Positions 12,855 through 46,198 of a stretch of 64,000 bases of DNA are shown here, piece after piece. Position numbers and translations under genes: made by a program. The DNA is taken from IMG/VR virus record IMGVR_UViG_3300043567_000723, one strand, 5' to 3'. Numbering within the stretch: position 1 is the stretch's first letter; every line of letters starts with the position of its first letter. Source of the DNA: a virus. Lineage: Duplodnaviria > Caudoviricetes. Below the pieces are notes generated by a model. The model was not told where the DNA came from, searched no databases, and saw only the letters and a program-made list of their open reading frames with translations.

Positions 12855-13745
12855 ATGTCAGATCTCACTCTTATGCCCGCTAGAAAAAAACGGGCTGCAA
12901 CGATAGGCTCTGTCCAAGTAGCAGTCAAAACTGTGACGGGCAAAGCGCTACGAGCCAGAAAAAAACGACAGCAGCGCCGGCAGACAGCTTCCGGGTGCGT
13001 TCTGTACCGCGGGCCGAGCCCGTGGGCGTTAGACGGCCTCCCAGAAGCTGACAGGGCCATTGTGATCCTGCTGACGTTCTCGTCCACGAACCGCAAGACA
13101 GGCGACACGTGCCAGCTGTGGCTTTTTGCCGACAAGCTCAAGCCCACCGAAGCCAAAGCTGCTGGGCTGAACCAGCTGGTCTGTGGCGACTGCGCGCTGA
13201 TGCAGGTCTGCTACGTCAAGCTGCATCAGGCTCCGCGCATGATCTGGAACTCCTACAAGAACGGAAACTACCCAGATTACCAGCCAGACCAGCACGATTG
13301 GATTATTGCTGAGAAAGGCGTTCGGTTCGGCGCCTACGGCGATCCAGTTCTGGTACCGATTGAATTGGTCCAGCATTTTGTTAGAGTTTCAAATCACAAC
13401 TACACCGGGTTCACAGAGCAATGGGCCAAACCCGAGTACCAGATGTACCGGCCGTATTTCATGGCCAGCGTTCACCGCGACGAAGATATTCCCAGAGCCA
13501 CGGCACTGGGTTGGCGCCACTACAGGGTTGGCACTGACGGCCCGAAAGCCGGCGAAGTCTTGTGCCCGCACCAGAACGAAAAACTTACGCAGGTTATTCA
13601 GTGCAGCACGTGTCAGGCGTGCAATGGCGCCAGCAGACCAGTGGGCCAGCAGCAGCGTCACAGTATTTTTGCCTATCCGACTGGCACAAAGTACATCAAC
13701 ACGCGATGGAAGAAAAACCTCGCAAGAACTCAACTAGAAAATTAA
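12855..13745 (+). CDS. Conserved Cys-rich phage protein (possible Fe-S/Zn enzyme)
   Basis: CGDC.....CYV, RFGAYGDP, TGFTEQW, FMASV, GWR.YRV, CP...C..C..C motifs. Confidence 0.65.
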   Translation: MSDLTLMPARKKRAATIGSVQVAVKTVTGKALRARKKRQQRRQTASGCVLYRGPSPWALDGLPEADRAIVILLTFSSTNRKTGDTCQLWLFADKLKPTEAKAAGLNQLVCGDCALMQVCYVKLHQAPRMIWNSYKNGNYPDYQPDQHDWIIAEKGVRFGAYGDPVLVPIELVQHFVRVSNHNYTGFTEQWAKPEYQMYRPYFMASVHRDEDIPRATALGWRHYRVGTDGPKAGEVLCPHQNEKLTQVIQCSTCQACNGASRPVGQQQRHSIFAYPTGTKYINTRWKKNLARTQLEN

Positions 13746-13759
13746 TCAAAGAACTAAAA

Positions 13760-13897
13760 ATGAACAACATTCATTTTGATCCGGTAGCCGTTATTGACCA
13801 CCCAGAATTATTGACCTCTGAGCTAGGTAAGGTATGCTGCGCAATATTTTGTATGCGCGATAGCTTTAAAGACGACTGCCGTTTGCCTAAAGAATAG
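13760..13897 (+). CDS. Small hypothetical protein (45 aa)
   Basis: ATG at 13760 within the 13562-13897 frame. Confidence 0.4.
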   Translation: MNNIHFDPVAVIDHPELLTSELGKVCCAIFCMRDSFKDDCRLPKE

Positions 13898-13926
13898 GCC
13901 GCGTACGTTTTAACACGGAGGTTTAT

Positions 13927-14457
13927 ATGAGTTTGATTCGTGGCAACATGTCTGTTCGACGCAACGATAAATGCCCGTGCGACAGCGGCAAGAAATATAA
14001 ACATTGCCACTCGCCGGAAGCGTCAAAGCATCCAAACAGCCACATGAAGCCGGTGAAGTACATAGACAGCGGCGAAGAAGCTGTGAAGTACGTAATCGGC
14101 GATAGTACAGGCGTAAAATTCTTCTCCGACAAAGATAACAATATCCTTGTCTTTGCCTCGCGCGAAGAAGCCACGGCAATTGCGCTGCTCGAAGACTTTG
14201 CTGACCAAGCGCCCGGCGAGATTAACGTTGCCGGCGTTGGGCAAACCAAGTGGGAGCATTTGCAAACCAAGCTGCCGTATGTAGAAGTTAAAAGTGTTGA
14301 GCACGCCGCGAGCCTCATTCGCGAGCGTATTGAAATTCAAGCCGCCAAACTGGAGAGCATGTCTGATGAAGTCGACCAACCAGAAGAAGAAAATAGTTCC
14401 AAAGAAAAAGCCCAGCCGGAAACCGCAAGCGAAGAAAACGAAATCAACGCGCAGTGA
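13927..14457 (+). CDS. SEC-C motif (Zn-binding) protein
   Basis: GGAGG RBS; RNDKCPCDSGKKYKHCH. Confidence 0.8.
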   Translation: MSLIRGNMSVRRNDKCPCDSGKKYKHCHSPEASKHPNSHMKPVKYIDSGEEAVKYVIGDSTGVKFFSDKDNNILVFASREEATAIALLEDFADQAPGEINVAGVGQTKWEHLQTKLPYVEVKSVEHAASLIRERIEIQAAKLESMSDEVDQPEEENSSKEKAQPETASEENEINAQ

Positions 14458-14752
14458 TGCCGTTGACGTAGTCCTTCTTGAAACGCTGGACGAGTTGGTG
14501 TCTGTATTGAAGGGTCACCGGGAAGTGCTGGCCGACCTGCAAAAGCATGTAGCTGCGTTATATGCGCGCAGTAAATACGATAATCAGCCGCAGCAGCCGC
14601 AGCCGCAACAATGGCCTAGCTGGCCGTTAGCCGGCAAAGGCACATACACATATGCGGCGCCGTATTACGTCGACTGCACGAACGGTTCGCAGCATTTGTA
14701 CGGGTATATCGGCAACCAGCCAGCGGGTTCAAACCAACCTAAGAACAAATAA
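14294..14752 (+). CDS. Hypothetical protein (true start uncertain, probably after 14457)
   Basis: Frame reads protein-like from about 14460 (coiled coil then QP-rich); no clean start codon seen. Confidence 0.35.
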   Translation: MLSTPRASFASVLKFKPPNWRACLMKSTNQKKKIVPKKKPSRKPQAKKTKSTRSDAVDVVLLETLDELVSVLKGHREVLADLQKHVAALYARSKYDNQPQQPQPQQWPSWPLAGKGTYTYAAPYYVDCTNGSQHLYGYIGNQPAGSNQPKNK

Positions 14753-14754
14753 CA

Positions 14755-15051
14755 ATGGACCTTGAGCCTATTTGGGCCGGCGACAAGCAGGCTATTCGGC
14801 TTGCCATGGGTGAGTTGAGCGCGCAAGAAATGCGTAGCGTTCTTGCGTTGCTCAATCTTCTTCGCCCAGAGCACGAGAAGCTGCAATACAAGCTGCGCGA
14901 GTATTCATTGGAATTACTCGCGCTGCACGATCAGGCACTATTAACTCAGATGGCTTACCTCAAACAACAAGGATGCTGTAATGACGTTTCACGAACTGGA
15001 AGAGAAGGTGCTGCAGTGGGCGATGGACCGGAAGATCATTCCCAACAGTAA
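14755..15051 (+). CDS. Hypothetical protein
   Basis: 98 aa ORF; 3' end overlaps the MazG-like gene. Confidence 0.55.
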   Translation: MDLEPIWAGDKQAIRLAMGELSAQEMRSVLALLNLLRPEHEKLQYKLREYSLELLALHDQALLTQMAYLKQQGCCNDVSRTGREGAAVGDGPEDHSQQ

Positions 15052-15289
15052 TCCCACAGCGCAACTCATGAAGACAATGTCGGAGTTGGGCGAGTTAGCC
15101 GACGCCACGCTCAAGGGCGATGACGCCGGCATTGTGGACGGCGTAGGCGACGTGCTGGTGACACTGATTCTGTACTGCAAATTACAAGAAATCAGCGTAG
15201 CGGCATGTTTAGGTCGTGCCTACGATGAGATTAAAGATAGAAAAGGCACTTTAACACCAGAAGGTATTTTTGTGAAAGAGACAGCATGA
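14981..15289 (+). CDS. MazG-like nucleotide pyrophosphohydrolase
   Basis: W...R......AQL.K..SE.GEL......D...I.DG.GD.LV.LI......CL..AY.EIKDRKG. Confidence 0.85.
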   Translation: MTFHELEEKVLQWAMDRKIIPNSNPTAQLMKTMSELGELADATLKGDDAGIVDGVGDVLVTLILYCKLQEISVAACLGRAYDEIKDRKGTLTPEGIFVKETA

Positions 15290-15591
15290 TCGATCCAAAT
15301 AAAGTAATAAGTGACTGCGAGCAAGCCGATCATATTATGCAGGATCAACGGGCCGAAATTGATCGGCTCAAGGAAGCCCTCCGCCGCCTCGCTGACCAAG
15401 ACGCCACGCTCTCGGTGTGCAACGGCAACGTAATTGTGACGATGGACGCCACGCTCACCGACGAGGAGTTGGAGGCGGTGGAGTGGTCGATTAACGATCA
15501 GATTGCCGGTGGGCATCAAGATCACCCAACTGTTAAAGCCGTTATCGTCACCCTGCGCGGCCTGCTGGAGCGGCTTGGAGGTGACAAGTGA
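15286..15591 (+). CDS. LTDEERE-family small protein, copy 1
   Basis: TLTDEELEAVEW...VTLRGLLERLG. Confidence 0.7.
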   Translation: MIDPNKVISDCEQADHIMQDQRAEIDRLKEALRRLADQDATLSVCNGNVIVTMDATLTDEELEAVEWSINDQIAGGHQDHPTVKAVIVTLRGLLERLGGDK

Positions 15592-15839
15592 GTGACATCG
15601 TTTTCGACGGCATGGTGTTTGACAGGCTCCGCGAGATAGGCGACCAGAGCGACAGGATTGCATCGCTGGAGTCAGAGATCGCCCGCCTGCGCCTCACCGA
15701 CGATGAACGGGAGACGATCAAGCGGGCGATTGACTCGCAGCAGGACCGGGCTGCCGAAATGCACAGTAGATCATGGGACGCAGCCGCCATCGACGAGGAC
15801 TGCGACACGCTACGCGGGCTGCTGGAACGACTAGGTTGA
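15588..15839 (+). CDS. LTDEERE-family small protein, copy 2
   Basis: RLRLTDDERETI...DTLRGLLERLG; stop overlaps an attC-like R box. Confidence 0.7.
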   Translation: MSDIVFDGMVFDRLREIGDQSDRIASLESEIARLRLTDDERETIKRAIDSQQDRAAEMHSRSWDAAAIDEDCDTLRGLLERLG

Positions 15840-15926
15840 GAACACCGAAGATCAACAGCCGCGAACTAGGAGGGCGGCGACTATGAGCGATACGAATGAG
15901 CAGTCTGTTGCATCGAATGGTTCTCA
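15837..15926 (-). mobile_element. Integron attC-like recombination site, reversed relative to the genes
   Basis: Minus strand reads TGAGAAC-CATTC-GATGCAAC...GTTGATC-TTCGGT-GTTCTCA, i.e. R''-5nt-8nt L''...7nt L'-6nt-R' with one extrahelical base; R boxes are exact 7-bp inverted repeats. Confidence 0.6.
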
Positions 15927-16206
15927 CGGGGAGCCAGTCGCGTGGGGTGTGTTTTACGGCGATGGAAAACTTCATTCATTATTGGACTCGCACGCAAAGG
16001 CCGAATGCACGGCGTTGACAATGCGAAAGTTCGACCATCTCGGCGTCTATGTTTCGCCGCTCTATTGCCAGCCAACGCTCACCGAAGCGGAGCAACTCGC
16101 AGTTGCATGGGCGGCGAGAGAGGCCGACGAGTGGGACGAGGAAGACACCCCAGAGGTCGCTGCACACGCCGATGCGTTGCGCGGGTTGGCAAGGCGACTA
16201 TTCTGA
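15883..16206 (+). CDS. LTDEERE-family small protein, copy 3 (EPVAW motif); start lies inside the attC-like site
   Basis: GGAGG RBS and ATG within the attC loop; PTLTEAEQLAV...ALRGLARRL. Confidence 0.7.
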   Translation: MSDTNEQSVASNGSHGEPVAWGVFYGDGKLHSLLDSHAKAECTALTMRKFDHLGVYVSPLYCQPTLTEAEQLAVAWAAREADEWDEEDTPEVAAHADALRGLARRLF

Positions 16207-16232
16207 GAACGAACAGGATCGCGTGGTTCTGG
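16204..16232 (-). mobile_element. Internally deleted attC-like remnant
   Basis: TGAGAAC-GAACAG-GATC-GCGTG-GTTCTGG: both R boxes and both spacers, with the L boxes fused at the shared ATC. Confidence 0.5.
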
Positions 16233-16244
16233 AGACACACACAC

Positions 16245-16412
16245 ATGACAATCACTCAAATAATCGGCGCTGCACTGATCTCATCACCATTTGCGGGCGT
16301 TGCTGTGTTGTGCCACATGCACGGCGGCTGGCCCGCCGTTGCTGTAGTGTTTGGTGCGAGCGGAGCCGTTGTTGCTGCTATCGCACTTGGGTGTCGACTT
16401 CTGGTTCCATAA
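16245..16412 (+). CDS. Small two-helix membrane protein (55 aa)
   Basis: GGAG RBS; MTITQIIGAALISSPFAGVAVLC...VAVVFGASGAVVAAIALG. Confidence 0.6.
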   Translation: MTITQIIGAALISSPFAGVAVLCHMHGGWPAVAVVFGASGAVVAAIALGCRLLVP

Positions 16413-16437
16413 CACGCAGGATCAGGAGCGGCGAACA
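16407..16437 (-). mobile_element. attC-like half site
   Basis: CCATAAC-ACGCAG-GATCAGG-AGCGGCGAAC then ATGAGCGAT, paralleling the left half and start of the 15837 site; stop TAA overlaps the R box. Confidence 0.45.
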
Positions 16438-16632
16438 ATGAGCGATGACAACACGCACATGGCTACGGCAAAGCTGGCTGCCGCGAACACATGGCTGCAA
16501 GAAGAAATCAAGCGGTTGCGGCTCACCGACGCGGAGCGGGAGGCGGTGGAGTGGGCGGAAGAACTCGCTGGAAACTGCGAAGAGTTTGATCGCGTTGACA
16601 CGCTTCGCAACCTACTGGAGAGAACGAAGTGA
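16438..16632 (+). CDS. LTDEERE-family small protein, copy 4
   Basis: RLRLTDAEREAVEW...DTLRNLLERTK. Confidence 0.7.
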   Translation: MSDDNTHMATAKLAAANTWLQEEIKRLRLTDAEREAVEWAEELAGNCEEFDRVDTLRNLLERTK

Positions 16633-16877
16633 CTAAAACACAATGTCAAGTTCCGTCGCAAATAAACGTGACGCTCACAGACGAGCAGCGAGAGTCATTG
16701 CGGGCGTCCTTGTCAGGCGGTGCAGGAGGCCCGCTGGTTCATCCACCGCAGCCCGCGCTCACCGACGAGGAGCGTGAGGCGATACAGCGGCTGATTGAAG
16801 ATTACGAACAAGACGGCGAGCCAGCGAGCGCAGTCTGTGTTGCCACGCTGCGTACTTTATTAGAAAGGCTGAAATGA
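16629..16877 (+). CDS. LTDEERE-family small protein, copy 5 (two motif copies)
   Basis: TLTDEQRESL and ALTDEEREAI...ATLRTLLERLK. Confidence 0.7.
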   Translation: MTKTQCQVPSQINVTLTDEQRESLRASLSGGAGGPLVHPPQPALTDEEREAIQRLIEDYEQDGEPASAVCVATLRTLLERLK

Positions 16878-17317
16878 ATCCAATTCGAGAAAACACTATT
16901 CCGCTCAACGAGTGTCGCAACGGCTGGGTGTATAGATTGTCCAGTCGAAATCTTGGCTTTGGCGTTTTCGTGCAGGCCAGCAATGGTTTTATCGGCATCC
17001 GCGAGAAATTTAATCACAAATATCTATTCACTGAGTACCACCGTGATACGGGTGTGCCGTTTGGAACAGTGTGCCCCAAGGAAGAACTGGAACCTGCTCC
17101 ACCCGGTTTAGTATTGAAAGAAAACGGCCCGCTTATTAATGAGGAAAACGGTCGCGTCGTCGTGCTCGAAGCGGGAACGGAATATCCGTCACCGCGAACC
17201 TATCGGTACGCCGATACATCAGAGATCTGCGATCCGGGTGAAATTGTGTGGTCGTGCAACCAACCGTTACACGACTATATGTTGTTAGTTGAAAACAAAT
17301 ATTGCAATAAAACATAA
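16874..17317 (+). CDS. Conserved phage hypothetical protein
   Basis: Y...SRNL..GVF.....GFIGIREKF...YLF.EYH motif. Confidence 0.7.
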   Translation: MNPIRENTIPLNECRNGWVYRLSSRNLGFGVFVQASNGFIGIREKFNHKYLFTEYHRDTGVPFGTVCPKEELEPAPPGLVLKENGPLINEENGRVVVLEAGTEYPSPRTYRYADTSEICDPGEIVWSCNQPLHDYMLLVENKYCNKT

Positions 17318-17330
17318 AAGAGAAAACGAC

Positions 17331-17543
17331 GTGAGGAGCGACCCCAACGACTGCGACGAGACCGTCCTTTTGACCGCCGAGGTGCGGCGATTGCAGGCGA
17401 TTATCGCCGCAAGTGATCCTGTACTCACCGACGAGGAGCGGTTCGTCTTGCGAGAGGCGCGAGACTTTTACGCCGACGTTGACGATGTCAGGTGCAACGA
17501 AATAGCGGCGGTCATCGACGGGCTGCTGGAGCGCACAAAATGA
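17331..17543 (+). CDS. LTDEERE-family small protein, copy 6
   Basis: VLTDEERFVL...IDGLLERTK; GTG start chosen. Confidence 0.65.
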   Translation: MRSDPNDCDETVLLTAEVRRLQAIIAASDPVLTDEERFVLREARDFYADVDDVRCNEIAAVIDGLLERTK

Positions 17544-18151
17544 ACGCCGACATCCCGACGTTTCGCTGCTGGGTCAGACTTCCGCACATTTCTCGCCGTG
17601 ACGGTGTTGAGGAAGCGTATGCCTTTGCAGTTCAAAGCGTTAAGGGGCGGGCGTTAGGATTTCATTGCATGCTCAAGTCAGGTGCGCATTATAGAAACGT
17701 GCCGATTCACGCGCTGTCTTTGTACCCCGAAGTTCCAGAGCGCCGGTTAGGCGATTTGCAACTTTGGGATTGTTTTTCAAGCAAACCAGTTGTCCATGTC
17801 TTTGATTACCTCTGCAACCATGAGTGCATCTGCTACTTGAGAAGCGGCGAACAGGCGGAAGGAACATACCAATTCACTGTAGATTGGCTGCCTGATTCGC
17901 GAGAGTCGCCCGGGTTTGTGCTGCGCCCGGAGCAAAACAAATGCGCGCATATTATTGCCTTGGCAGATGGCAACATTTGCGCTCTGCCGACAAACCGGAT
18001 CGCGTGGCGGGATGCGTATTTTATTGGCCGGAACCCAGACCCGAAGTCGGCAGGATATTTAGTGCAGGATCTTGTCTACCAAGCAGAAGATTCTCGCTGG
18101 GATTTCAGCGGAGACGACGGCGGGTATATGTATGAACCAAAACAAATCTAA
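17540..18151 (+). CDS. Conserved phage hypothetical protein
   Basis: FHC.L..GA....VPIHAL, LQLWDCFS, Y.FTVDW, KC.H...L..G....P.NRI.W. Confidence 0.75.
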   Translation: MNADIPTFRCWVRLPHISRRDGVEEAYAFAVQSVKGRALGFHCMLKSGAHYRNVPIHALSLYPEVPERRLGDLQLWDCFSSKPVVHVFDYLCNHECICYLRSGEQAEGTYQFTVDWLPDSRESPGFVLRPEQNKCAHIIALADGNICALPTNRIAWRDAYFIGRNPDPKSAGYLVQDLVYQAEDSRWDFSGDDGGYMYEPKQI

Positions 18152-18256
18152 AAATTGCAACGCTCCGCGCGTTGTTGAATCGTTTGATAACGCAGACATT
18201 AAATAATGCTGTGTCCGGTATAAACGACACAAACAAACACAGGTGAAAGATTCCCT

Positions 18257-19342
18257 TTGAGTGTATTTGATTTTGTTGCGCATGTTCGGCGCTACAAGTT
18301 GCGCCCGTGGCGTGTAGCACGCGTTGGTCGACGAATGTCGCAGACGTTTGCGCAACAATTCGGGCTGCACTTAGATAGCATAAAAAGCTACAAAGTAGTT
18401 GTGGCGCGTACAAATGCTGTACGCAATAAATGGGCGATGCGGTTGAAAGAACTGGCTTCGAGAAACCTATGGTTTCCGCATTCAAAAAACCTGAACCCGT
18501 ATTCCGCCGATTTTGACCTTAAAAAATTTACGCTTACGTTTCAGCGTTGTTTATTCTGCCGCCCGTCGTATTTGTATTTTTTCTGGAAGCGTACAAAAGT
18601 TTTTAGGCCGTGTAACCGATCGTACTTCTGTCCGTTTTGTTTTGCTCGCGTCAGTCAGGCGCAGTACGTTCACGTGCGCAAAAAAATACGGGCTATTGGC
18701 AATCAGAACTCCAGTACGCCACTTATTGCCACATGTCGCGTAACCAGTCGGTTTTTGCCGGCGCCTGACTTTGATCTGATATCTGGCTGCGACAACGATA
18801 AAGTCTCGGAGTACTCGCGGTTGTTATGGGGCGAGTTACGGCGAGAGCGTGCCGCGTATCAAAAACTAGTTAAACAATTGAATCGAAAAACGCGCGGATC
18901 TATGTGGCGGCTAGTTGTAGTGCCGCAAGACACCGGCTGGATTATTGAGACGCGTCAATTTCTGTTGCATCAGCCAAAAATAAAGATGCCGTTTGTGCGA
19001 CCCAAGAATGGCAAAGTGGTGTACCTGAAATCTATCAAAGCCGCTGTTTGCTATAACCAGTCCGACACAGAATTTTATTTTATGCTGGGGCAGTTCAATC
19101 GGTATCCAGTCGAGCTATTGACTGGCTACGCTGAATTGACCGCGGCATATCTGCGCGCCGTCGACGGGATGCACACTATTTCAGGTACCGGTATTTTTCG
19201 CCGGGCTGGGCGGTCGCTTGTTGAGCTTTTCAAAGCGAGGCACGAAACACATGGCGAAGGCGAGAAGAGGCAGAAAAACAACGTACGCCCAGTACCGGCG
19301 GAAAATGCTGCACGACGATCAGCCGTGGCGTCAGCGCCTTGA
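18257..19342 (+). CDS. Basic Zn-finger protein, possibly a degenerate HUH Rep/IS91-like fold
   Basis: CLFC and C...FCPFC; Arg/Lys-rich; no intact HUH motif. Confidence 0.55.
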   Translation: MSVFDFVAHVRRYKLRPWRVARVGRRMSQTFAQQFGLHLDSIKSYKVVVARTNAVRNKWAMRLKELASRNLWFPHSKNLNPYSADFDLKKFTLTFQRCLFCRPSYLYFFWKRTKVFRPCNRSYFCPFCFARVSQAQYVHVRKKIRAIGNQNSSTPLIATCRVTSRFLPAPDFDLISGCDNDKVSEYSRLLWGELRRERAAYQKLVKQLNRKTRGSMWRLVVVPQDTGWIIETRQFLLHQPKIKMPFVRPKNGKVVYLKSIKAAVCYNQSDTEFYFMLGQFNRYPVELLTGYAELTAAYLRAVDGMHTISGTGIFRRAGRSLVELFKARHETHGEGEKRQKNNVRPVPAENAARRSAVASAP

Positions 19343-22469: not shown

Positions 22470-22540
22470 TGCCCGATGGTGTAACGGTAGCACAAGAGAT
22501 TTTGGCTCTCTTAGTCTAGGTTCGAATCCTAGTCGGGCAT
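22470..22540 (+). tRNA. trnQ: tRNA-Gln(UUG), no encoded CCA
   Basis: Acceptor TGCCCGA/TCGGGCA; D arm TGGTGTAACGGTAGCA; anticodon stem AGAGA/TCTCT with loop TT-TTG-GC; T loop GGTTCGAATCC. Confidence 0.92.
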
Positions 22541-45366: not shown

Positions 45367-46198
45367 TTACAAGCGGCTTCGCGAGCGCAGAGATCGAATA
45401 ACGACAGTTGCATTGCGTCCTTATATTGACGCCAACATTGTCGGTGACACCCTACGGGATATGTGTCGCGACATACTGGCTGAGATGCCGGACTCAGTAT
45501 CGCAGCTGGCGGTGTTCGACTCTGTGCGCGCGTTAGCCGGCACCAAACTGACGCGTAAAACGGCAAGCGAGCTGGCTTGGCGATTGGCGGGCAATTTAGA
45601 TAAGTTAACCGCCGGCCAGTGCGTCTTGCCGTGGACGCGTCAAATCGACGACGAGATTGTTCCGATAATCGTGGAAAATGTACGGCCGTTTAAACGAAAG
45701 AATACTCCGGGCTTTATCTTCAATTGTCGTGTCTTGGCCGGTTCTTCCTGCCCCATGACATTTACGCAATTTCTATCAAAAGCAAGTTGCGGCGCTATAT
45801 CGCAAAGCATCGGGTTCTCGAAATCTTGGGGTCCGTATCCGTACACGTCCGCGTTGCATTTCGTTAATCTTCTATTTTTTGCGCACATAGAAGCTGCCCG
45901 TAGCCGCGAATCGCCTTTCTTCTTGAAGGTCAGCGCTAGCAGTAGCATGATCAAAGAGAACCGCGGCCGCATAGAAGTCCGTACGCGTGCCCGACCGTGT
46001 CCTGATCAATACGAGCACGCTTGCGTACACTGCTGGCTTGGGTACGATCAGTGCGCTTACGCAACACATCCCAGAACCTATGAAAGTCGGCATTGCTCAA
46101 ATTGCAACGCTGATGGCTTTTTTGATCCCACGGATAACGGTTTATTATGCGTTCGTTGTCGGTATAGGGCGGCGCAGCACGTTGAACCCACTCATTGA
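45347..46198 (+). CDS. Hypothetical protein with C-terminal Zn-finger clusters
   Basis: CP...C..C.....C and CSNC...C.RC. Confidence 0.7.
   Translation: MKPAPFSYKRLRERRDRITTVALRPYIDANIVGDTLRDMCRDILAEMPDSVSQLAVFDSVRALAGTKLTRKTASELAWRLAGNLDKLTAGQCVLPWTRQIDDEIVPIIVENVRPFKRKNTPGFIFNCRVLAGSSCPMTFTQFLSKASCGAISQSIGFSKSWGPYPYTSALHFVNLLFFAHIEAARSRESPFFLKVSASSSMIKENRGRIEVRTRARPCPDQYEHACVHCWLGYDQCAYATHPRTYESRHCSNCNADGFFDPTDNGLLCVRCRYRAAQHVEPTH

Follow-up and report, generated by a model that had tools for sequence, protein, structure and literature searches.

What is the 90-nucleotide inverted repeat at positions 15837-15926 of the 64,000-nucleotide stretch of viral DNA considered here (IMG/VR record IMGVR_UViG_3300043567_000723, Caudoviricetes; the whole stretch is referred to below as the window), where one small gene ends and the next begins? 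An earlier note, made from the letters alone, took it for the attC recombination site of an integron, reversed with respect to the genes and carrying the ribosome binding site (RBS) and start codon of the following gene. Comparison with related phages and with bacterial genomes supports that interpretation, which is largely right. With a probability of roughly four in five, the element is a Planctomycete-type integron attC at the 5′ end of a 367-bp phage cassette, with the integron integrase, IntI, of the host acting on it in trans. Sequence comparison shows that it is homologous to sites in arrays that lie beside Planctomycete integron integrases.

On the + strand, which carries the genes, the site opens with a left R box, TGAGAAC (15837-15843; the canonical R′ when read on the minus strand). 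Its first triplet, TGA at 15837-15839, is the stop codon of the upstream 83-amino-acid open reading frame (ORF) at 15588-15839 (+), and its last, AAC at 15841-15843, is the probable crossover triplet. The site closes with a right R box, GTTCTCA (15920-15926; canonical R″ on the minus strand), which forms an exact 7-bp inverted repeat with the left one. Between the two, a 6-nt spacer (15844-15849) lies opposite a 5-nt spacer (15915-15919) across an unpaired central region. The left arm of the L helix (15850-15862) consists of GATCAACAG (15850-15858) followed by a CCGC extension (15859-15862). The former pairs with CTGTTG-C-ATC (15905-15914), leaving C15911 unpaired, and beyond a bulged T15904 the latter forms an additional 4-bp helix with GCAG (15900-15903) that contains one C.A mismatch, the right arm as a whole spanning 15900-15914. 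The variable loop (15863-15899) holds a Shine-Dalgarno (SD) sequence, AGGAGGG at 15868-15874 (GGAGG at 15869-15873), the ATG at 15883-15885 and the first codons of the next gene, a 107-amino-acid ORF at 15883-16206 (+) whose first 14 or so residues are encoded inside the attC. S-V-A-S-N-G-S-H of its product comes from the right arm of the site, S-V-A-S being encoded by the L helix and G-S-H by the R box. Direct reading of the sequence shows every coordinate that the earlier note had given for boxes, spacers, bulge, stop, SD and ATG to be correct. As in an attC, there are two inverted box pairs, with AAC/GTT invariant in 21 phage and 39 host copies, and the site is asymmetric, with 6/5 spacers and with C15911 and T15904 both bulged on the 3′ arm. 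The 6/5 asymmetry is present in all copies and in host sites, and across copies both extrahelical bases are always on the right arm.

Judged on the window sequence by itself, the site is not statistically compelling, and it is the comparative data that settle its reality. Folding as single-stranded DNA, which the earlier note had proposed as a check, turns out not to be distinctive: the 90 nt, as DNA of either strand or as RNA, fold no better than shuffled sequence (z −1.33, −1.57 and −1.67). Of 200 dinucleotide shuffles, 1% contain the compound R and L architecture with AAC/GTT, a figure that applies to an architecture defined after the fact and fitted to the observed site. A second compound inverted repeat, with 7-bp outer arms, 9-bp inner arms and one bulge and lacking AAC/GTT, is present at 45549-45636. 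Repeats of its type arise 0.69 times per shuffled window and in 46% of shuffles, and neither of the two covariance models described below matches it. Fold scores of only −1.3 to −1.7 and the ease with which such a repeat arises elsewhere in the window are in keeping with a chance inverted repeat, but that explanation can be dismissed outright given the covariation, the more than 300 homologous copies and the E-value of 2.8e-11 obtained with a model from host sites.

A DNA search of the INPHARED phages with positions 13000-19000 of the window gives no match. In IMG/VR relatives the element is retained ahead of genes homologous to that for the 107-amino-acid ORF. Searching viral contigs with a 14-base pattern, CTGCATCNNNTGGTTCT, yields nearly all single chance matches, and a spaced 22-base pattern was used instead, with matches in at least 120 stretches of IMG/VR. 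A regular expression finds 312 copies in 134 phage loci (the viral loci examined), never on both strands of one locus. From 21 phage copies, gathered first by regular expression, a covariance model (R1) was made. It scores the window site at 84.6 bits, as high as any other copy, and finds 55 copies in nine loci, all on the + (coding) strand, 250-420 nt apart and one per small-gene junction. The arrays of loci L001, L004 and L006 have 9-16 sites each, that is at least two attC within 4 kb, and in L006 there are 16 copies within 5.2 kb. The contigs with large arrays are those of real phages, with terminase (TerL), portal, tape measure, helicase and primase genes, and have only small accessory genes in common with the window. 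Copies come in a long form of 87-91 nt, with SD, ATG and about eight codons in the loop, and a short form, a 49-51-nt hairpin with no start codon.

The stem covaries, with compensatory changes among relatives. The L stem is CAACAG/CTGTTG in the window, CAGGAG/CTCCTG in L001 and CAGCGG/CCGCTG in L006, and the bulged C is kept throughout. In the 21 phage copies 98.5% of the inner helix (helix 2) is paired, and five of its pairs differ at both bases; none of 500 shuffles does as well, and slid controls drop to 28-45% paired. Phage-type copies are also carried by four loci from metagenome-assembled genomes (MAGs) labelled Beijerinckiaceae, Afipia, Cyanobium and Methylocystis (L283, L305, L310 and L267), and homologues of phage cargo genes are present in L283 and L310 too. 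These non-Planctomycete copies are most likely mis-binned phage contigs rather than a sign of a wider host range.

The spaced 22-base pattern is found in 110 GTDB genome stretches, nearly all from Planctomycetota and with three complete chromosomes among them. In whole chromosomes the R1 matches cluster, and the clusters adjoin integron integrases that score 395-439 bits on TIGR02249, for which the cut-off is 265. One array of Pirellulaceae SH449 ends at 2,978,143 (+) and is followed by intI at 2,978,577 (+), with a mirror-image pair of array and intI at 4,631,703-4,662,487 (−), and arrays beside intI are also found in Lacipirellula limnantheis, Stieleria magnilauensis and two MAGs. Throughout the host arrays the modelled strand is the one that encodes intI, and the cassette ORFs run along the other, stopping immediately ahead of a site. 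Such an arrangement is textbook for integrons and so identifies what R1 models as the attC bottom strand. In the host sites (39 of them) helix 2 is 99.6% paired, and 11 of 13 pairs are changed on both sides. A second covariance model, R2, was made from these 39 sites, all beside bona fide intI and from two Planctomycete chromosomes only. Applied to the window, as a covariance-model check of the kind proposed in the earlier note, this host-only model matches 15837-15926 at full length and on the + strand only, with 49.4 bits (E 2.8e-11), keeping in mind that its training sites were collected with the phage-derived R1 and so are biased towards phage-like sites. Its next-best match in the window is a relic at 16204, with 13.1 bits (E 0.39). 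Planctomycete genomes frequently have several intI genes: integron integrase matches above the TIGR02249 cut-off number at least three in one Planctomycete genome and at least six in another.

The latter figure is from a Planctomycetota MAG (G010, CAVXOB01), where examples are at C2:928,900, C2:1,458,435 and C11:1,649,635. Several of its matches lie in frames of 465-627 amino acids, as against the usual IntI length of about 320, and may carry extensions or fusions. SH449 (G006) has, in addition, five copies of a 322-amino-acid frame (2,965,763-2,966,572; 2,975,257-2,976,066; 4,646,544-4,647,353; 4,649,990-4,650,799; 6,024,803-6,025,606) that the integron-integrase model matches in two pieces only, of about 117 and 76 bits, below the cut-off. 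Four of the five are inside the two large cassette arrays and the fifth is about 9 kb away from a third cluster, which is smaller; they may be a tyrosine recombinase, derived from IntI or borne by an insertion sequence, that lives in integron arrays.

Where the phage sites part from those of the hosts is in the direction of the genes. The geometry had been called reversed, and it is: host ORFs are opposite to the modelled strand, phage ORFs are on it. In place of the canonical cassette layout, a promoterless top-strand ORF and then its attC, the window has a bottom-strand ORF that starts inside the attC. It is because the ORF lies on the folding strand that the preceding stop is in the crossover box and that SD, ATG and leader are in the loop and right arm. 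Among 258 long phage copies, 208 (81%) have a start codon in the loop and an ORF of at least 30 amino acids beyond the site, and for that proportion the earlier proposal that each site supplies translation signals is true. A same-strand upstream ORF stopping at or in the left box accompanies 88% of the long phage copies, most commonly with the TGA of TGAGAAC, and the leader specified by loop and right arm ends in S/P-x-A-S-x-G-S. The phage-type layout, that of about 80% of phage copies, is seen at just 10 of 254 sites (4%) in bacterial loci.

Such regularity at gene starts raises the question of whether the element works at the RNA level, as a translation operator, processing site or stabilizer, with any shuffling of genes a by-product of homologous recombination between repeats. 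A by-product of that type has been proposed for the gene shuffling seen with the promoter-early stem-loops (PeSL) of T4-type phages. Every copy occupies the coding strand, 81% of the long ones carry SD and ATG in the loop, the SD is within the L stem in two subtypes, and the length of the long form is constant at 88-91 nt. Moreover, in the 21-copy alignment there are eight G-U cells on the mRNA-sense strand as against about one C.A. Yet the same family fills intI-adjacent host arrays in which the ORFs are antisense to the modelled strand, and therefore the structure there is not an mRNA feature of those genes. Nor does any Rfam family match the element (E-value mode; the window region and four loci).

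Breakpoints were located by comparing all pairs of copies with their flanks, pairs that are not phylogenetically independent. Forty pairs agree in element and downstream gene and disagree in upstream gene, and 11 further pairs have the upstream gene in common and different elements, giving 51 breakpoints at the left box versus 3 + 2 mirror-image cases at the right box. The boundaries are at offsets 0-3 and 7-8 around the AAC of the left box. The first four bases of this box move with the upstream cassette and everything from the spacer onward with the downstream one, and therefore the exchange point is within AAC. IntI is known to cut the bottom strand at AA|C, which is G|TT on the top strand. 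In L001 one cassette is duplicated in two contexts, and the identity runs from the left box to the next left box, ending after AGAAC. Gene content thus varies at the junctions in related phages, as it should if the earlier note was right, and the breakpoints are of the integron type.

An integron cassette circularizes, and for that reason its own two R-box halves come to lie at successive sites of an array. Among 139 adjacent phage pairs, full complementarity of the outer four bases of the right box is found with the next left box in 102 and with the left box of the same site in 30. The mean complementarity is 3.55 for the next and 2.45 for the own box, with permutation giving 2.34 ± 0.07 and none of 5000 permutations as high. 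In the informative phage pairs the next left box wins 89 to 13, and in host arrays beside intI 20 to 6. The window follows the same pattern, its right box GTTCTCA (15920-15926) being complementary at 7/7 positions to TGAGAAC at 16204-16210. By the cassette logic of an attC, crossover at G|TT of R′ leaves the outer part of R′ with the neighbouring cassette, whose R″ it pairs with, and the phage arrays carry the signature expected of recombination through a circular cassette intermediate.

Homologous recombination between RNA-level elements does not readily give this result. Breakpoints are ten times commoner at one R box than at the other. They can be narrowed to a triplet, and 3 nt are too few for homologous recombination; junctions seldom fall at the longer conserved block on the opposite side. 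Complementarity between a right box and the left box that follows it has no rationale in RNA. As the whole explanation, an RNA-level element is therefore improbable. As an addition to a recombination site, an effect of the hairpin on translation at the RNA level is plausible, since the SD is in the stem in two subtypes and the G-U pairs are on the mRNA strand, but it accounts for neither the intI linkage nor the pattern of junctions. Three further candidates were tried and rejected: an intrinsic terminator, as the stem is not followed by a run of T, a processing site of the RNase III type and a miniature inverted-repeat transposable element (MITE). Each leaves both the intI linkage and the one-sided AAC junctions unexplained.

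Returning to the window with the attC reading, the breakpoint rule and the R-box chain (7/7 match of 15920-15926 to 16204-16210) would place its cassette at 15843-16209 (+), 367 bp from the C of the AAC at 15843 to the AA of the next TGAGAA|C, with the attC first and then the 107-amino-acid ORF. The product of this ORF belongs to no Pfam family and has no named look-alike in the protein atlas. Its homologues, of 50-63% identity, occur in phage loci L001-L006, with or without a preceding attC. Those of L002 and L003 lack the element and also the first 12 or so codons and are start/stop-coupled to a different upstream gene. For ten neighbouring small ORFs Pfam gives only MazG and SEC-C motifs. 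The cargo of about 50 cassettes consists of two larger families and more than 20 singletons, and the pool looks phage-specific. The small ORFs of the region 15286-17543 end, just before their stop, in a common C-terminal module, L-T-D/E-x-E-R ... L-R-x-L-L-E-R, joined to unrelated N-terminal parts, and in relatives endings such as ...LLERLG* and ...LLERTK* precede many left R boxes. The module is either a conserved block that reaches upstream of the attC or the mark of a diversifying cargo family.

The array of the window is decaying, with one intact site, one collapsed relic and one half site. The relic (16204-16232, +) retains both R boxes and both spacers but has lost the whole L helix and the loop, by a deletion through the ATC that the two L arms have in common. 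Its TGA is the stop of the 107-amino-acid ORF, and R1 gives it 18.2 bits (E 0.026). L002, L003 and L005 have this relic as well, again behind the homologous gene, and so the deletion is old. The half site (16407-16460, +) has a left R box, CCATAAC, whose TAA is the stop of a 55-amino-acid ORF, then a spacer, the left L arm GATCAGGAG and an ATG at 16438 with the leader MSDDNT, and has lost its right arm. Its left half is nearly identical to L001:703-792. Both degenerate sites fail the models, and so the window, with its single intact site, does not have the two or more attC within 4 kb, without integrase, that the related arrays have. The window DNA originates from metagenomes of lake water, and contigs from other lake metagenomes (Logan, four runs) switch neighbour at 16230, after the relic, and at 16411, the xxxx|AAC of the half site; these contigs are assemblies of mixed related phages, and the switches are not evidence of ongoing excision. 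The proposal in the earlier note that the phage shuffles or acquires small genes as cassettes is supported for the phage family, while the window's own array is in decay. Between relic and half site, the ORF of 55 amino acids (16246-16412) is hydrophobic and likely a small membrane protein; in relatives and other lake contigs this slot has instead a 60-amino-acid MPCPKCGS... gene that is zinc-ribbon-like.

With such decay, it needs to be asked whether the site is a dead passenger, a fragment of a host array gained by illegitimate recombination that now serves as a spacer with a start codon and undergoes no recombination in the phage. That two of the three window sites are degenerate would fit, as would the cargo homologues with no site in L002 and L003 and the failure to find an integrase in the window or in the related phage loci examined. 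But phage copies constitute a class of their own, with inverted ORF, start in the loop and stop in the box, a combination of about 80% of phage and 4% of bacterial copies, and the intact site, at 84.6 bits, equals the best of them. The R-box chain is at least as strong in phage as in host arrays, and therefore recombination has acted on phage-type cassettes. A dead passenger is very improbable.

The identity of the recombinase is a separate issue. The arrangement of a complete integron, intI and attI beside the array, is not found in the window or in the related phage loci examined. The earlier note's statement that the window has no IntI is borne out within the 64 kb by a tblastn search with host IntI, which gives no match there or in 2.2 Mb of related phage loci. 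It is because none was found in either that the integrase is assumed to be supplied by the host. Alternatively, a true attC-type site might be recombined by a Xer-like tyrosine recombinase, or some other enzyme, of the phage itself. IntI has its nearest kin in the Xer recombinases, which are able to use folded single strands, as with the CTX phage, and four of five related phage contigs encode a Xer-like tyrosine recombinase of 275-302 amino acids. However, these proteins score at most 18.7 bits on TIGR02249, far from the cut-off of 265, and are shorter than its 315-position profile. Their genes are 12-26 kb from the arrays and are obvious lysogeny integrases of temperate siphoviruses. A hidden Markov model of them has no match in the 64-kb window, and the sites are homologous to those that IntI serves in hosts. 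Use of the sites by a phage recombinase is quite improbable.

Several points weigh against an attC that a host IntI keeps in use. Neither of the two recombinase searches just described found a match in the window, and the single intact site with dead neighbours makes current activity doubtful. No homologues of phage cargo are present in three host arrays, and no direct exchange of cassettes between phage and host is seen. The strict co-orientation with genes, the SD and ATG in the loop and the G-U pairs of the mRNA strand would fit an RNA-level role as well. The R boxes TGAGAAC/GTTCTCA agree with the consensus RYYYAAC/GTTRRRY in AAC/GTT alone, a consensus that is loose for this taxon as many intI-adjacent host sites have GTTCT or GTTCG boxes. 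To these should be added the bias of R2 and the non-independence of the breakpoint pairs referred to above.

By the mechanism envisaged, the + strand, as single-stranded DNA, would fold into an attC, and the integron integrase of the Planctomycete host would bind the folded strand and cut it between A and C of TGAGAA|C. Cassettes, moving as circles, would be excised, inserted or swapped. Read-through transcription anywhere in the phage operon would suffice for expression, and a cassette would be expressible wherever it is inserted because each brings its own translation start. A wider proposition, that Planctomycete phages keep much of their small accessory repertoire as a pool of inverted cassettes, with RBS, start and leader supplied by the attC, the stop in the crossover box and shuffling driven by host IntI, has the odds slightly on its side.

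Structured repeats at the starts of small accessory genes are familiar from the PeSL cassettes of T4-type phages and from the SAS and ESAS motifs of Cluster K mycobacteriophages, which are believed to work by controlling translation or through homologous recombination and are not known to be linked to any site-specific recombinase. The present family is like them in that repeated motifs are tied to expression signals and to modular gene shuffling, and differs in the homology of the window site to integron attC and in junctions at a single triplet. An attC type specific to Planctomycetes has been modelled (Ghaly et al. 2021, PMC8352920). The window site and the attC of the sedentary chromosomal integrons of Planctomycetota are alike in length (about 90 nt), AAC/GTT R boxes, 6/5 spacers, covarying stem and a GATCA.../...TG-C-ATC L helix in which the same arm bears the extrahelical bases. 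In both, a right box is the complement of the left box after it, and the host-site model finds the window site. The two differ in that host sites are beside intI with ORFs on the top strand, whereas the phage ORF is on the folding strand and begins in the loop, the crossover box contains the stop of the gene before it, and no intI is nearby. The R boxes, too, are mostly GAGAAC/GTTCTC in phages and CTAAC/GTTAG in hosts.

Phages with attC sites and with CALINs, in both cases lacking integrase, have been described among temperate and virulent phages, and action of bacterial IntI in trans was proposed, with IntI1 recombining five of six tested phage attC sites in vivo, sites from virulent phages included (Qi et al. 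2023, PMC9892861). The account given there of the 17 CALINs, each with at least two predicted attC, describes no start codon inside attC. What is shared with that work is attC in phages without integrase. What is different, insofar as its account of phage sites goes, is the scale (hundreds of copies, arrays of up to 16 sites in 5 kb), the uniformly inverted orientation with built-in translation signals and the Planctomycete hosts, which are outside the host groups discussed there for phages. The term SALIN is applied to a single attC lacking an integron-integrase (10.1101/2024.07.02.601686). With one intact attC and no integrase within reach, the window resembles this category; it departs from it in that the site has two degenerate neighbours and is a member of a family of phage cassettes, not a cassette that has strayed from bacteria. 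A full-text literature search found no attC arrays in Planctomycete phages and no inverted cassettes with a start codon inside the attC. Phage attC sites, then, are already known, and it is the inverted, translation-supplying form that seems undescribed.

Integrons have been viewed as bacterial devices, and the few attC reported from phages are recent finds. In the present case a whole clade of phages from the environment appears to draw on the integron machinery of its hosts for shuffling its own small genes, with recombination signal and translation start merged in one object. If this is true, the integron system extends to the evolution of virus genomes on a large scale, and there is a mechanism for the hyperplastic small-gene regions of these phages. 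One covariance model would permit hundreds of phage accessory genes to be harvested as discrete cassettes, genes that are likely to serve host takeover or counter-defence. Uncultured lake phages would be tied to Planctomycete hosts, with attC type serving for host prediction, and the cassette pool would be the phage-side counterpart of the cassette 'biobanks' of bacteria. When the bottom strand is transcribed, the recombinogenic strand may become exposed, or be folded as RNA, which could couple expression with recombination.

Two minor features may be mentioned. Directly behind an attC copy, L001:215-280 is a near-threshold match to the Rfam family RF03075 (DUF3800-VIII RNA), with 39.6 bits against a gathering score of 40.2. 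In the window, a tRNA-Gln gene with anticodon TTG is present downstream of the small-gene region, at 22470-22540 on the + strand.

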